Part shown: positions 5,625 to 10,965 of the stretch, one piece after another
How the letters are laid out: each line of letters begins with the position of its first letter
Position numbering within the stretch: position 1 is the first letter of the stretch
From: Candidatus Multivorans sp.
Lineage (GTDB): Bacteria > Acidobacteriota > Thermoanaerobaculia > Multivoradales > Multivoraceae
Direction: 5' to 3'
Assembly: GCA_965247095.1 (NCBI GenBank)
Contig: OZ251997.1
Span: 2,304,001 to 2,368,000, forward strand
Length of the DNA stretch: 64,000 nucleotides
The notes under the pieces: generated by a model
The model's database searches: none
The model's input: the letters and a program-made list of their open reading frames with translations, nothing else
What the model was told of the DNA's origin: nothing
Position numbers and translations under genes: made by a program

Positions 5625-5819
5625 CTTGAGCAGGATCGGTTAAGGAATGTCACTGGGGAAGGACTCGATGGCTGTGTTGACGCGGGAAAGGAAGCGGTTG
5701 ACAGCTCGGCTGCACTCTAGGACCGCGGCAAGCCAGCCAAATGAGAGTGCGGTGGCTCTCCGCCGTGCTCGTTTCTCATCGCCCCACTCCCATCGGGTCC
5801 TTCGCCAGAGCCCTCGGCT

Positions 5820-5856
5820 GCGGCTCGACGGGGTCATCTTGACTCCGTCGAGCCGC
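5820..5856 (+). terminator. Strong hairpin downstream of the precursor array (possible terminator or mRNA stabiliser)
   Basis: 17-bp stem gcggctcgacggggtca/tgactccgtcgagccgc with one G-U pair and a 3-nt loop. The T tail is weak. Confidence 0.4.
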
Positions 5857-5914
5857 TTCCACGCAAAGTTGGCTTGCTCACCCAAGAGGGTCGGGCCAAT
5901 AGCCGCAAGGATGT

Positions 5915-5944
5915 TTGACGGACGCTACAGGTGCGGAGTAGCGT
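5915..5944 (+). promoter_or_regulatory. Sigma70-like promoter overlapped by a 12-bp inverted repeat
   Basis: TTGACG-N18-TAGCGT. Inverted repeat gacggacgctac/gtagcgtccgtc at 5917-5949. Same position relative to the conserved element as the promoter at 9559. Confidence 0.55.
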
Positions 5945-5950
5945 CCGTCT

Positions 5951-6094
5951 GTTGGTCGTCAGAGGCGCAGTGGGCCTGCGAGCCGGACCCCCTGCTAGAC
6001 CTAGCCGTCGCCCCTGGGCTTAGGGTCGCTCCCTTCGTCAGGCGAGTCTGCGGGGGGTCTCGTTTGCCCTGTGCAGTGCGGCCGATTCGGCCCG
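5951..6094 (+). ncRNA. Candidate structured RNA, copy 1
   Basis: Homologous to 9595-9736 (38 of the first 46 nt identical). The closing stem pairs well only on the + strand, through G-U pairs. Confidence 0.55.
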
Positions 6095-6157
6095 CCACCA
6101 GTCCAGGTGCCGGCGCACCTTCACCGAAAGCCGGCTAGAGCGAACGCGAAGGACTCG

Positions 6158-7771
6158 ATGGCGACGTTGACGAACCCGGGCAGCCGAGTGGACCTGCTGC
6201 TGACCCTTGCACGGCTGTCGTTCCCGGACGCCGTGCGGAGGGCCAACCAACCGGTGGCGGTGGCGATCCTGATCGCCGTCCTGTTTCTGGTGTCCGCGAC
6301 CGTCGCCACACTGGGCCTTCTGCCCGTTCTCTTCACGATCGAGAGTGACGGCCTGCGGCGGAATCTGTTGAACCTGATCGCCTGCTCCATCACGGCACTC
6401 GGGCTGCTCGCCCAGGTGGCGCTTCGAGCGCCGGTCACGTGGCTGCTCGATCTGGAGGACCTGCTGCGGCTGCCGGTGGGTTTTCGAGACCTGTACGGAC
6501 TCCGTCTCGCGCTGAGCACGATCGGGTACTGGCTGCTCGTTCTCGGTCCCGCCGGCGCCTATCTCACGGTCATGAGGTCGGGAGGGGTCGCTGGAGTGCC
6601 GGTCACGTTGCTGGGCATCCTGAGTCTGGTCTGGATCTTCGGCCGTCTGGCGGCGATCCTGTCGCTTCTGGCCCACCGTTGGGTCGAAGGTGCGCTCGGC
6701 ACACTGGCCATGCTGGTGATCATGGCGCTCGGCCAACTCGCGCTCCTCGTCGGCGCAATGGCCTTCGGAGGAGAGCTCGATTCCGAGGGAGTCACTCAGA
6801 CAATCGAAGCTTCCGCGGTTCTCGGCGGTCTCGGCTACACGCCGCCGGGGCTTGTCGCCGGCATCGTCCACGAACCGGGCTGGTCGGCGCCGAATCTGGC
6901 GAGATTCGCAAGTCTGCTCGCCGTTCTCGGCGTCTTGATCGTGCTGGAGAACCGGCTCCTTCTTCGCCGCTACCTCGATCGGCCCGGTGGTGACCGCCGC
7001 ACCGCTTCCGGAGTACTGCCTCTGGCGCGGATGCTCCGCGGGTCGCGCCGCCTCACTCCCTTGGGCGCTCTCACCATGCTCGAGACGGAATGCCTGTTGC
7101 GCCTCAAACCGGCGCGCATGGTTCTGGCAATCATGGCCGCCTTCGCCCTGGTCTGGGTGCCTACCCTTGCCGGTCTCGCGGTGGGTCTGGCTGGGATCTA
7201 CGTTGTGGCTCTGCACGAGTTCCGGGTGCGGAAGCAACCCCCGACCTGCTACGTATGGCGGGAATCGCTCACCCTTCCCCTCTCCGTTCAGCGGATCTTC
7301 CGGGCGCCCGGCCGTGCGCCCAACGTGGTGATCGCCTTGCTTGTCGCGTTCATCTTCGGCCTGACGCCGCTCGACTGGTTCGGGTGGCCATTCTTCCTCG
7401 TCGCGTCCTGCCTGATGCTCGCCAGCATCGTGCTGGGCACAGCCGCATACGGCCTGATCCAGCTCTACTGGCCTCAACGGAGTGCGGGGCTCACCGACAG
7501 CCCGAACAGCTCGAAGTTCGGGGCCTCTCTACTGCTTCCACAGTTGGCCTTTGGCCCGGCCTTCCTCTCGTTCCTCTTGTACGTGCTCTACGAAGGGCAG
7601 CGCGTCAGCCCGCTGACTGCCGGCCTCATCGCGATTGCCGTGCTACTCCTCGCAGCCGCGGCCGCATACGCCTCGCGCCGGTGGCAGGCACGCATCCTCA
7701 AGGCCCGCGGCCGCGAACTCCTCCTCGACAACCCCGCCGAAGACCCTCCGAAGCCATCGAGCCCCCCCTGA
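6158..7771 (+). CDS. Multi-pass membrane protein, putative ABC-2-type permease
   Basis: Many hydrophobic helices, LLRLPV motif, aagga RBS, directly upstream of an ABC ATPase. Confidence 0.75.
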   Translation: MATLTNPGSRVDLLLTLARLSFPDAVRRANQPVAVAILIAVLFLVSATVATLGLLPVLFTIESDGLRRNLLNLIACSITALGLLAQVALRAPVTWLLDLEDLLRLPVGFRDLYGLRLALSTIGYWLLVLGPAGAYLTVMRSGGVAGVPVTLLGILSLVWIFGRLAAILSLLAHRWVEGALGTLAMLVIMALGQLALLVGAMAFGGELDSEGVTQTIEASAVLGGLGYTPPGLVAGIVHEPGWSAPNLARFASLLAVLGVLIVLENRLLLRRYLDRPGGDRRTASGVLPLARMLRGSRRLTPLGALTMLETECLLRLKPARMVLAIMAAFALVWVPTLAGLAVGLAGIYVVALHEFRVRKQPPTCYVWRESLTLPLSVQRIFRAPGRAPNVVIALLVAFIFGLTPLDWFGWPFFLVASCLMLASIVLGTAAYGLIQLYWPQRSAGLTDSPNSSKFGASLLLPQLAFGPAFLSFLLYVLYEGQRVSPLTAGLIAIAVLLLAAAAAYASRRWQARILKARGRELLLDNPAEDPPKPSSPP

Positions 7772-7802
7772 CCACCCACAACCACAAGGAACCCCTGAAC
7801 CA

Positions 7803-8591
7803 ATGGAAGCAATCAAGGCAGACAATCTGACCCGGTCCTTCGGCGGCAACGTCGTCGTCGACGGCGTGGATCTCGATGTCCAGGAGGGTCAGATCCTGGG
7901 TTTCGTCGGTCCCAACGGGGCGGGCAAGACGACGACCTGGTCGATGCTGACCGGGCTGCTCCAACCCACGAGCGGCACGGTCCGACTGCTGGGCAAGCCG
8001 GTCGACGTGAACGACACGGAGCTCAAGCAGCAGCTCGGCATTGTGCCGGACCAGAGCATCCTGTTCGAGAGCCTGACCGGCGAGGAGCTGCTGTTGGCGT
8101 ACGCCCGCATCTACGGCCTGAGCCGCGAAGACGCCGGGCAACGAACCGACGAGGCACTCGCGGTCTTCGACCTCGAAGACGCCGCCAAGCGACCGATCAC
8201 GACCTACTCCCACGGCATGAGAAAGAAGATCCGCCTGGCGGCGTCGACCCTTCACGCGCCGCGGGTTCTGTTTCTCGACGAGCCGTTCGAGGGCATGGAC
8301 GCCCTCAGCGCCCGCACCGTCATGTCGATCCTGCAGCAGATGGCCGAGCAGGACGGCGTGGCCGTGTTCCTGACGTCCCACATGCTCGACTACGTCGAAC
8401 GCGTGTCGACCCATCTCGCCGTCATCAGGGACGGCAAGGTTCTCCTGTCCTGTTCCCGGGAGGAGTTCCGCGAGCTGCCCGACGCCGAGGGAGAAGACGG
8501 CGCCGGCCGGCTCGAGAACCTCATCCTCAGCATCTCCAAACGCGAGAGGTTCTCCCGCCTCTCGTGGATCGGCAACAGGAGCAAGACATGA
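7803..8591 (+). CDS. ABC transporter ATP-binding protein
   Basis: GPNGAGKTT, YSHGMRKK signature, FLDEPF and SH switch. Confidence 0.95.
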   Translation: MEAIKADNLTRSFGGNVVVDGVDLDVQEGQILGFVGPNGAGKTTTWSMLTGLLQPTSGTVRLLGKPVDVNDTELKQQLGIVPDQSILFESLTGEELLLAYARIYGLSREDAGQRTDEALAVFDLEDAAKRPITTYSHGMRKKIRLAASTLHAPRVLFLDEPFEGMDALSARTVMSILQQMAEQDGVAVFLTSHMLDYVERVSTHLAVIRDGKVLLSCSREEFRELPDAEGEDGAGRLENLILSISKRERFSRLSWIGNRSKT

Positions 8592-9364
8592 CCGAGCATC
8601 CGAACACAACTGACCAGGAGCAGCAGGCCCCTCCCACGGCCGTCGAGCCACACGGGCCCCAAGGATGGTCGGCCGCCCTGATCGCGCTTGTCACCTCCCC
8701 GCAGAGGAGCTTCGAGATCATCCGTCACCGCGCACCGTGGCTCGGCGTCCTGGTCCTGCTCGTGGCGAGCGCGGCCTCCCTCAACCTTCTGGCGACGCCG
8801 TTTGGCCTTCAAGCCGCGCGTGCCCAACTCACGGAGGTGCTCGCCGATCCGCAACAGGTCGACGCCATCGTGTCCGAGGCCGAGCAGACGGCTGCCGCGA
8901 GATGGTGGCTGACTCTCGGAACCGGCGTTGTCACGATGATCTTCAGACTGGCCATACAGACCCTGTTCGTCTGGATCCTGGCGACCGCCCTCCGCGGGCG
9001 CGCCCGCTTCGTGCAGGCCCTCTCGCTGATGGTGTACGTCAACCTGATCACGCACCTCCAGCAGTGGGCGAACTTCCTTCTCCTTCACGTGAGAGGGATG
9101 GACGCGATCCGGTCTCTGCAGGATCTGCAGACGCCCATGGGGCTCGACCTGCTGTTGACCGGCGAAGGCGCGCTCCTGAACGCGGTCTACGCGAGCGTCA
9201 ACCCGTTCACGATCTGGTTCCTGGCGCTGCTCGGCCTGGGCTCCGCGGCGGTTCTCCGCCTGCCCCAACGGGCCGGCTGGGTACTTGCGGGCATCTACTG
9301 GGCGGCTTCAACTGTCCTCTCGGCCGGTGTCGCCGGCGTGATGGCCCGTCTCCTGCCCACCTAG
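8588..9364 (+). CDS. Yip1-domain membrane protein
   Basis: ATGA overlap with the ATPase. TSPQRSFEII start, about 5 TM helices and NPFTIW motif typical of bacterial Yip1. Confidence 0.8.
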   Translation: MTEHPNTTDQEQQAPPTAVEPHGPQGWSAALIALVTSPQRSFEIIRHRAPWLGVLVLLVASAASLNLLATPFGLQAARAQLTEVLADPQQVDAIVSEAEQTAAARWWLTLGTGVVTMIFRLAIQTLFVWILATALRGRARFVQALSLMVYVNLITHLQQWANFLLLHVRGMDAIRSLQDLQTPMGLDLLLTGEGALLNAVYASVNPFTIWFLALLGLGSAAVLRLPQRAGWVLAGIYWAASTVLSAGVAGVMARLLPT

Positions 9365-9503
9365 CGCGGCAGAACTACCGGAGGCCGGCGCTTCGCGCCG
9401 GATGCGGGCAGGATGCCCGCGTGCCATCCGTGCGCCCGATGACGGGCGCACGGAGTGGTTGCGTGTGGCGCGGGTACGCACCAGTTTCGAGATCGTCCGC
9501 GAG
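9361..9503 (+). repeat. Composite palindromic mini-element: REP-like unit A interrupted by double-hairpin unit B
   Basis: 9361-9422 matches 28275-28336 at 60/62 nt, then continues into unit B as seen at 61537 and 59581. The right end is degenerate. Confidence 0.8.
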
Positions 9504-9558
9504 CGCCAGCCACAGGCCGCACCGTCAGTCCCCCCATCTCGTAGCACCTCAAATTCGT

Positions 9559-9587
9559 TTGACGCCTACAGACCGACGCGGTAACTT
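9559..9587 (+). promoter_or_regulatory. Sigma70-like promoter
   Basis: TTGACG-N17-TAACTT, 7 nt before the conserved element. Confidence 0.65.
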
Positions 9588-9594
9588 CGCCTCA

Positions 9595-9736
9595 GTTGGT
9601 CGTCGACGGCGTAGGGGGCCTGCGAGCCGGGTCCTCTGCTGAATACAAAAGCCGATACAAGGCGCAGGGTCGCTCCCCGTGCTCGGCGAATAGGCAGGCG
9701 TACGTGCCCACTGTGCATGGCGACCAACAAGGCCCG
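9595..9736 (+). ncRNA. Candidate structured RNA, copy 2
   Basis: 10-bp closing stem gttggtcgtc/ggcgaccaac with nested stems. Homologous to 5951-6094. Confidence 0.6.
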
Positions 9737-9867
9737 GCGCCATTCACTGCCCTGGAGCCTGCATCTCCACAAGGGGCAGGCTTGGGCAACGAGCCCGAAG
9801 CGGCCCAAGTCGGTGTTGCTGGTATAACGGGAGTTCCCACCAGGTGCAGTCAAGGAGGAGAGACACG

Positions 9868-10965
9868 ATGCAGCGCAACCTTCGTCCAGGCGCCGCGGCG
9901 GCAGCCGCAATCGTCTTCCTCGCGGCGTCGGCCGCGATAGCCGCCGAGGACGACGCGACCCCGCGCACGGCCTCGGGGCGCGCGGACTTCACCGGCAACT
10001 ACGATGTCGCGACGCTGACGCCGCTCAACCGGCCGCAGAAGTTCGGCGACAACCTGTTCCTGACGCCGGAGCAGGCAAACGGGATCGTCGAAAGGGAGCG
10101 GGAGCGGGTATCCGCGCGGGCAGCCAAGCGGCAGATCACCGAGGCGCCCCCACCGGGCGGAGCGCCGCCGATCGGCCTCGGCGACGAGTTCCGCGAGACC
10201 AGCGGCGCCGGCAACGTCGGCGGCTACAACAACTTCTGGACCGACCGCGGCAGCGACGTGTTCTCCATCGACGGCAAGTTCAGGACGTCGATCATCACCG
10301 ACCCGACGAACGGGCGGATGCCGGCCCTGACCGCGGAGACGATGCAACGGATGTCCGAGCGGCGCGGACGGCGGCGCGGCAACGACGGCAGCGCCTGGTG
10401 GCTCGACGTCGAGGGTCCCGGCCCCTACGACGGGCCGGAGTCCCTGGGCGTTCCCGAACGCTGCCTGATCGGCTTCGGCTCCACCGGTGGTCCGCCGATG
10501 CTGCCCGTCCTCTACAACAACGCCAAGCGGATCGTGCAGACCGAAGATCACCTGATGATCCTGGTCGAGATGGTTCACGACGCGCGGATCGTCCGCATCG
10601 GCGGCGAGCACATCCCCGAGGACGAACGCCGCTGGCTGGGAGACTCGATCGGCTGGTGGGAAGGGGACACCCTGGTGGTCGAGACGACGAACTTCACCGA
10701 CGGGCCGGCGCTCTTCCTCGCCTCGCGGAACCTAAAGGTCACCGAGCGGTTCACCCGTCAGGGCGAGGACCTCCTGTACGGCTTCACGATCGAGGATCCC
10801 ACGGTGTGGACCGCGCCATGGAGCGGCGAGTACCTGTGGCCCGGCACTCCGGCCAAGGTGTACGAGTACGCCTGCCACGAGGGGAACTACGCCATGGGCG
10901 GGATTCTCAAGGGGGCGCGGCTGCTGGAGGACGAGAAGAGGGCCGCGGCCTCCGGCGGCGAGTAG
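9868..10965 (+). CDS. Conserved secreted hypothetical protein
   Basis: aggaggag RBS, signal peptide, WLGDSIGWWEGDTLVVET and YEYACHEGNY motifs. Confidence 0.85.
   Translation: MQRNLRPGAAAAAAIVFLAASAAIAAEDDATPRTASGRADFTGNYDVATLTPLNRPQKFGDNLFLTPEQANGIVERERERVSARAAKRQITEAPPPGGAPPIGLGDEFRETSGAGNVGGYNNFWTDRGSDVFSIDGKFRTSIITDPTNGRMPALTAETMQRMSERRGRRRGNDGSAWWLDVEGPGPYDGPESLGVPERCLIGFGSTGGPPMLPVLYNNAKRIVQTEDHLMILVEMVHDARIVRIGGEHIPEDERRWLGDSIGWWEGDTLVVETTNFTDGPALFLASRNLKVTERFTRQGEDLLYGFTIEDPTVWTAPWSGEYLWPGTPAKVYEYACHEGNYAMGGILKGARLLEDEKRAAASGGE

Follow-up and report, generated by a model that had tools for sequence, protein, structure and literature searches.

The ZTP riboswitch (the pfl motif, Rfam RF01750) completes its sensing domain with a pseudoknot, in which a strand of an internal loop or junction pairs with a distal 3' strand that is also contested by the expression platform. 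The cyclic di-GMP (c-di-GMP) riboswitches of classes I and II precede many unrelated surface, secreted and envelope genes and also occur in tandem. Motifs of the raiA and nhaA-I type were put forward from comparative genomics as orphan riboswitch candidates before their ligands were known. Here we describe an RNA that recalls all three, found as two copies (copy 1 and copy 2) in a 64,000-nucleotide (nt) stretch of the genome of Candidatus Multivorans sp. (contig OZ251997.1, positions 2,304,001 to 2,368,000 of the forward strand; hereafter the window). Like the ZTP riboswitch, it forms a pseudoknot with a distal 3' strand that may also be contested downstream, but it has no Rfam match, folds as a single long five-helix hairpin followed by a tail, carries other conserved nucleotides and is not found before purine or folate genes. 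Like the c-di-GMP-I/II riboswitches, it stands before unrelated genes for surface or exported proteins and sometimes in tandem, but neither Rfam model matches it and its distribution is patchy and seemingly tied to habitat rather than broad. It shares with the raiA and nhaA-I motifs a complex covarying fold, a position in the 5' untranslated region and signs of an expression platform; it differs from them in belonging to no Rfam 15 family and in occurring in about eight phylum-level groups with few lineages each. We propose, with moderate confidence, that both copies belong to one family of cis-acting, ligand-responsive 5' leaders and are candidates for an orphan riboswitch.

The two copies showed a mean column identity of 77% in an alignment of 249 columns that included the promoter region, and a BLAST search of the whole genome with copy 1 recovered copy 2 at 83% over positions 1-46. 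This bore out the homology proposed in an earlier, model-made interpretation of the window (the sequence-only reading), which had counted 38 identical nt among the first 46; the shared blocks that it had noted further 3' were visible in the pairwise alignment of both copies. An nhmmer profile made from copy-2 orthologues and copy 1 detected two sites only in the 4.6-Mb genome (E values of 4e-45 and 1.4e-27), and a cross-phylum covariance model, R2, detected the same two sites only, scoring 131.8 bits for copy 2 and 75.2 bits for copy 1. Because each of these searches recovered exactly these two sites genome-wide, chance was excluded as the origin of the likeness. A further covariance model, R1, which was built from 23 copy-1 and copy-2 sequences with helices P1, P1b, P2, P3 and P4 set by hand, scored copy 1 at 147.9 bits and copy 2 at 165.6 bits. 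The elements had previously been taken to end at 6094 and 9736, with the start codons about 70 and 140 nt downstream; they extend further 3', to about 6100 and 9742, and the start codons lie 63 and 131 nt from the ends first assigned. Weak candidates for a third copy were returned by BLAST from the genome itself (L089) and from a relative (L088), and were confirmed by neither nhmmer nor R1.

The RNA family is undescribed. A scan of the window with the 4227 models of Rfam 15, which include ZTP, c-di-GMP-I/II, ydaO, cobalamin and ribozymes, gave no match at the gathering thresholds, so this check, which the sequence-only reading had advised, returned no known family. At E <= 10, the region 5800-9950 had no match on either element and only chance-level matches elsewhere. 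The same models applied to 18 diverse loci carrying the RNA retrieved only tRNAs and a group II intron, all away from the element, and a consensus-like member had a single chance-level match (E 3.4) to the model of a human long non-coding RNA, on the opposite strand. Literature searches, covering titles and abstracts, yielded no published account of the RNA. The group II intron domain (RF02003, 89.7 bits) lies at 1866-2003 of locus L208, a record titled Latescibacterota, about 140 nt from the RNA and on the opposite strand.

Evidence for the fold came from alignments that extended well beyond the genus. From 40 non-redundant members aligned with MAFFT alone, RNAalifold returned helices P2, P3 and P4 together with a long-range helix, CGGGUC/GGCCCG, corresponding to a pseudoknot; in closely related copies the ends pair as well, giving P1 and P1b. 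Among the 82 matches from genome records, 92.8% of the cells were paired, against 35-48% in slid controls, and double-sided changes amounted to 721 cells against 192 in shuffled alignments, none of the 500 shuffles reaching 721. The 83 metagenome matches repeated this result, with 92.1% of cells paired and 393 double changes against 106 in shuffles. The pseudoknot, formed between a strand of the large internal loop and the 3' tail, was left out of the R1 model, so the alignments were not fitted to it; it was paired in 98% of cells in the 82 genome-record matches, with one of its pairs read as C-G (51), U-G (13) or A-U (8) and another as U-G (49), C-G (18) or U-A (6). After removal of identical sequences, P1 was closed in the unconstrained minimum-energy fold of 124 of the 126 distinct members, against 139 of 630 shuffles. 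The covariation check, which compared paired changes with shuffles, thus gave strong support to a long interrupted hairpin, P1-P1b-P2-P3-P4, with a pseudoknot, and an all-column-pair scan found no further helix beyond these. We regard the element as almost certainly a real structured RNA of roughly 150 nt.

Several segments of the RNA were near-invariant: the loop strand GYCGGGUC, the junctions GAAUAnAAnA and GAAUA that flank P3, the P4 tip GGGU(A/C)GCUCCC and the tail GGCCCGGC. The family contains many G-U pairs, and the reverse strand of one member scored 18 bits against 158 bits for the forward strand; on both grounds, the RNA was assigned to the strand of the downstream gene. The sequence-only reading had proposed a long interrupted hairpin closed by GUUGGUCGUC paired with the 3' end, and this part of its fold stood; its apical gcc/ggc hairpin did not, the tip actually being GGG-UCGCU-CCC. 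Its remark that copy 1 replaces Watson-Crick pairs by G-U pairs held for P1, where three G-U pairs in copy 1 face Watson-Crick pairs in copy 2. The 3' tail with its pseudoknot, and the reach of the family far beyond this genome and phylum, were features that it had not contained. An isolated covarying pair was also seen between alignment columns 53 and 157 (94% standard pairs, 14 double changes). Column 53 is the second base of the pseudoknot loop strand and column 157 the base just 3' of P2; as column 53 also pairs with the tail, the signal may reflect a base triple or shared ancestry.

Copy 2, whose tail and loop strand form an 8-pair duplex (-18.6 kcal/mol), is a standard member of the family. 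In copy 1 both GAAUA junctions are missing, and its loop strand, GCCGGACC, and its tail, GGCCCGCC, leave 2 mismatches in 8 when paired, a register-shifted duplex of -13.1 kcal/mol being possible. Since the changes in its loop strand and tail are common to all nine other aligned copy-1 orthologues, their comparison identifies copy 1 as a variant that the genus has conserved, as opposed to a copy in decay. Its junctions are altered and its pseudoknot is weakened or shifted in register, and it may respond differently from copy 2.

Within the genus, the element proved far better conserved than its flanks. Of 36 other genomes of the genus, 35 had a full-length or near-full-length BLAST match to copy 2, with 82-99% identity, and in most of them copy 1 was located 3.3-5.9 kb from copy 2 on the same contig; R1 detected the element in 18 of 19 other genus genomes. 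One genome of the genus (G011, a single contig, 97% complete) contained neither copy by BLAST or R1. A further 17 full-length members were present at other loci of genus genomes, all of these extra members being recovered by R1 at 50-98 bits, above their nhmmer scores, and the highest copy number was 10 in one genome. Between copy-2 orthologues, the distance from the element to the start codon ranged from 13-14 nt to about 130 nt.

Two arrangements of extra copies were observed in the genus. In three genomes (loci L083, L086 and L087), a tandem pair of RNAs stood before one gene; the second copy was more diverged: R1 gave it 23-25 bits in L086 and L087, and in L083 it was recognised by eye only. 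In one genome (loci L081, L082 and L084), three near-identical copies of the RNA were each followed by an M48 peptidase with a PDZ domain, and lay inside repeats of 2.1-3.4 kb that start about 270 nt upstream of the RNA.

The position of the RNA relative to genes suggested what kind of element it is. A same-strand open reading frame (ORF) with a motif resembling a ribosome-binding site (RBS) was found within 200 nt downstream of 155 of the 186 matches. The median gap between RNA and start codon was 26 nt, and 124 of the 155 gaps were within 60 nt. A terminator scan detected no terminator-like site between either copy in the window and its start codon (6100-6158 and 9742-9868). Because the RNA matches no Rfam family, shows strong covariation and is followed at a median of 26 nt by a gene on the same strand, with no terminator-like site in between for either copy in the window, we consider it very probably a cis-acting leader. 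The sequence-only reading had offered an unannotated small RNA or a cis-regulatory leader family and had suggested tabulating downstream genes; this supported its proposal, and the close same-strand genes favoured action in cis over action in trans, that is, the leader option, and disfavoured the small RNA.

The 155 downstream proteins formed 79 clusters. The largest clusters consisted of poly-glycine lipoproteins (14, one of them with a sub-threshold match to a TbpB barrel), GT25 glycosyltransferases (11), the family of the 365-amino-acid (aa) protein encoded behind copy 2 (10) and further lipoproteins (9). A Pfam search of 40 downstream proteins, drawn from 51 filter-passing ORFs after removal of redundant genus copies and of two dubious ORFs with no RBS motif, added outer-membrane barrels, M48 and subtilase peptidases, LRR and MORN repeats, PEGA and CsgG. 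By a crude rule applied with no control, 50 of the 79 cluster representatives had a hydrophobic N-terminal stretch. Judged from these annotations, the downstream genes are heterogeneous and mostly code for surface or exported proteins.

In many members, a near-copy of the loop partner follows the tail, so that a local hairpin could replace the pseudoknot; the strand released in such members can pair with the RBS or precedes a U-tract. Some individual members displayed a clear sequestering hairpin, and a few members from other phyla had U-tracts. With identical sequences removed, 41 of 125 members allowed all 8 tail bases to pair downstream (shuffles: 105 of 1250), and 66 of 125 allowed at least 7 to do so (shuffles: 354 of 1250). 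A tail followed by such a look-alike resembles the layout of a riboswitch expression platform.

These elements can be assembled into a model. Transcription would start at or beside the first base of P1. The first ~135 nt fold as P1-P1b-P2-P3-P4, with internal loops that carry the near-invariant nucleotides, as the covariation shows. The 8-nt tail GGCCCGGC, just 3' of P1, pairs with the large-internal-loop strand GYCGGGUC to form the pseudoknot, which covariation shows as well. Alternatively, the tail could pair with the downstream look-alike of its loop partner, beside the RBS or the U-tract, consistent with the enrichment seen in many members. A ligand would stabilise the pseudoknotted form and thereby select the downstream hairpin, so that the RBS would be freed or transcription would end. 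For the nature of this ligand, we hold a small molecule to be an evenly balanced proposition. If the model is right, the RNA, about 150 nt long and switched by a pseudoknot, would be a new and well-supported class of orphan riboswitch, and its presence would identify dozens of uncharacterised families of exported proteins as co-regulated.

Several observations weigh against this model. The alignments behind P1-P4 were fitted to the covariance model and so favour that structure. By reasoning only, P1 and the pseudoknot may not readily coexist, since the tail begins 2-3 nt past the base of a ~20-pair helix. By the rule used (same strand, RBS-like motif, 200 nt), 31 of the 186 matches had no downstream ORF, and the 155 downstream proteins fell into 79 unrelated clusters that indicate no single metabolite or pathway. 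The enrichment of the alternative hairpin was two- to four-fold only, in G+C-rich sequence, and the copy-2 orthologues with short spacers had no obvious look-alike strand. The effect of the pseudoknot was modelled by folding the 3' region with the tail either blocked or free, in 42 leaders whose gap was 5-70 nt and whose ORF had 80 aa or more. RBS accessibility fell in 6 of these and rose in 4, with no consistent direction, and folds of the window's own two leaders gave no settled on/off logic. Finally, a sigma-70 consensus scan called neither of the promoter-like sites in the window, each -10 element matching 3 of 6 positions.

The most serious rival, which we nonetheless consider unlikely, is a structured leader with the same tail switch whose reader is not a small molecule but a protein or another RNA, such as a dedicated RNA-binding regulator. 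Heterogeneous genes with mostly surface or exported products look more like a regulon than a pathway, and the patchy distribution among phyla could track a co-transferred factor; no conserved neighbouring regulator gene turned up, however, although no search aimed at one was made, and the combination of large invariant junctions, a pseudoknot and tandem copies is more typical of metabolite sensors. A 5' element that processes itself or stabilises the transcript and senses nothing (a ribozyme, a structure protecting from RNase, or a translation enhancer) is improbable. Small self-cleaving ribozymes show a similarly patchy spread before unrelated genes, and the multi-copy, cross-phylum occurrence of the present RNA, with up to 10 copies per genome, resembles it, but no Rfam ribozyme family matched and the alternative pairing of the tail beside the RBS suggests control, not stability alone.

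Still less probable is a gene for a trans-acting small RNA with its own promoter. Each copy does have a promoter-like site and copy 2 lies 125 nt from its start codon, but nothing resembling a terminator separates either copy from the gene, and the RNA lies on the strand of the gene, at the short median gap given above, and abuts the RBS in orthologues. The end of a mobile element, or a miniature repeat with an incidental fold, was largely refuted: the three near-identical copies in one genus genome and the equal-score sets in another would fit it, but the near-identical copies sit in 2-3 kb repeats together with the downstream gene, the two window copies are only 77% alike, the element is syntenic in 35 of 36 genus genomes, its helices show compensating changes, and viral contigs (0 matches) and plasmids (no matches, two queries) were devoid of it. 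A small protein or leader peptide, such as the 114-aa ORF 9596-9940 that starts at TTG 9596 and overlaps copy 2, is refuted for practical purposes by the 1- and 2-nt indels and paired stem changes among orthologues and by a P1 sequence that is free as long as pairing is kept; ORFs of this kind are common in high-G+C DNA.

R1 detected the RNA in neither of 2 genomes of other genera of the family and in none of 129 genomes of the order's other families (0 of 131 together); among 150 other genomes of the phylum it was present in 2, both from one genus out of 105. Across 185,579 species genomes, a degenerate core pattern had at least 120 matching stretches; of the 80 genome-record loci listed among these, 78 were confirmed by R1, nearly all at full length, L175 and L217 having no R1 match at E <= 0.01. 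The titles of the listed records named Alpha- and Gammaproteobacteria, Acidobacteriota, Nitrospirales, Latescibacterota, Gemmatimonadota, Candidatus Entotheonella, Binatia and Chloroflexota, about eight phylum-level groups in total, with few lineages in each carrying the RNA. Wrong binning cannot explain this spread because many of the matches lie on contigs of 0.1-6.5 Mb; five genomes with such long hit contigs had one copy each. In 241 million metagenome records, the pattern matched 86 stretches, and all 80 of those listed, which came from 14 data-set prefixes only, were confirmed by R1. Records with the copy-1/copy-2 pair were titled Candidatus Multivorans, Thermoanaerobaculia or Acidobacteriota.

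Entotheonella is known from sponges, and the taxa named include Palauibacter species called irciniicola, rhopaloidicola and poriticola, such taxa being known from sponges or corals. One genus of the order of Palauibacter has been described as living mainly with hosts and as commoner in corals and sponges (PMC10469786). Most carriers apparently live in marine sponges and corals, a habitat link inferred from the taxa named. Because the RNA is near-absent from the relatives of its hosts and yet present in about eight phylum-level groups, the patchy distribution suggests a habitat-tied sensing device that has been moved by gene transfer. Such a device would govern what symbionts expose at the cell surface, and its ligand could reveal a signal of animal-microbe symbiosis. 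A more speculative extension, which we rate as unlikely, is that this is a new riboswitch class that senses a host- or community-derived signal of the marine sponge/coral holobiont, switches the bacterial cell surface (surface lipoproteins, outer-membrane proteins, lipooligosaccharide-type glycosyltransferases, proteases and an exporter of the ATP-binding cassette (ABC) type) and has been horizontally passed between symbionts of about eight phyla, copy 1 being a variant of changed specificity that controls the exporter.

The features of the window and the tandem copies found elsewhere in the genus are collected in Table 1.

Table 1. Positions of the two RNA copies, their parts and neighbouring features in the window, and of tandem copies at other loci of the genus.
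Feature	Positions	Strand	Description
Promoter-like site, copy 1	5915..5944	+	TTGACG 5915-5920, 18-nt spacer, TAGCGT 5939-5944; 6 nt to G5951; presumed function
Copy 1, probable leader RNA, diverged variant	5951..6100	+	R1 and R2 matches
Copy 1 P1	5951-5960/6077-6086	+	
Copy 1 P1b	5965-5975/6064-6074	+	
Copy 1 loop strand	5982-5989	+	
Copy 1 P2	5991-5996/6049-6054	+	
Copy 1 P4	6017-6025/6031-6039	+	loop UCGCU
Copy 1 3' tail	6089-6096	+	
Copy 1 putative expression platform	6101..6160	+	possible hairpins 6091-6113 and 6110-6135; CCUUC 6118-6122 would lie opposite RBS GAAGG 6148-6152; ATG 6158-6160
Copy 1 operon, overall	6158..9364	+	
Copy 1 operon, gene 1	6158-7771	+	537-aa multi-pass membrane protein as read; no Pfam or NCBIfam match
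Copy 1 operon, gene 2	7635-8591	+	longest ORF, true start probably later; ABC ATPase, Pfam ABC_tran E 6.6e-30, NCBIfam DrrA-like
Copy 1 operon, gene 3	8564-9364	+	Yip1/YknW-like membrane protein; Pfam Yip1 E 2.7e-9; NCBIfam YknW_fam E 8.4e-21, below cut-off
Promoter-like site, copy 2	9559..9587	+	TTGACG 9559-9564, 17-nt spacer, TAACTT 9582-9587; 7 nt to G9595; presumed function
Copy 2, probable leader RNA near family consensus	9595..9742	+	R1 and R2 matches, covariation
Copy 2 P1	9595-9604/9719-9728	+	
Copy 2 P1b	9609-9619/9706-9716	+	
Copy 2 loop strand	9626-9633	+	GCCGGGUC
Copy 2 P2	9635-9640/9693-9698	+	
Copy 2 junction	9641-9650	+	GAAUACAAAA
Copy 2 P3	9651-9654/9684-9687	+	
Copy 2 P4	9661-9669/9675-9683	+	loop UCGCU
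Copy 2 junction	9688-9692	+	GAAUA
Copy 2 3' tail	9731-9738	+	GGCCCGGC
Gene behind copy 2	9868..10965	+	365-aa protein, hydrophobic N-terminal stretch, very large unnamed family
Tandem copies, L083	3030-3191		
Tandem copies, L086	656-815 and 467-643		
Tandem copies, L087	3042-3203 and 3215-3392		

The 365-aa protein encoded behind copy 2 had no Pfam or NCBIfam match, and the Atlas gave unnamed clusters only. At least 8000 relatives were found at E <= 1e-5, 60-70% identical across classes and all labelled hypothetical. Its structural model (predicted local distance difference test, pLDDT, 69) contained a C-terminal barrel that weakly resembled fatty-acid- and retinol-binding proteins in a fold search (E 6e-4, template modelling (TM) score about 0.5 on the target).

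Upstream of each copy, the TTGACG-N17/18-TAnnnT layout with a diverged spacer that had been described earlier was present, and in 30 copy-2 orthologues both hexamers and their spacing were largely kept with a variable spacer sequence; the two TTGACG sites are putative promoters. The terminator scan placed a terminator-like hairpin at 5745-5770, upstream of the promoter-like site of copy 1, and a terminator-like or G+C-rich hairpin was read by eye at 9400-9455, just upstream of that of copy 2; such hairpins would make each leader head its own transcription unit. An extended -10-like motif, TGCTGGTATAAC, was noted at 9817-9828, in the spacer that separates copy 2 from the start codon. This motif was absent from the short-spacer copy-2 orthologues and kept in most of the long-spacer ones, and it could be a second promoter that bypasses the copy 2 leader.

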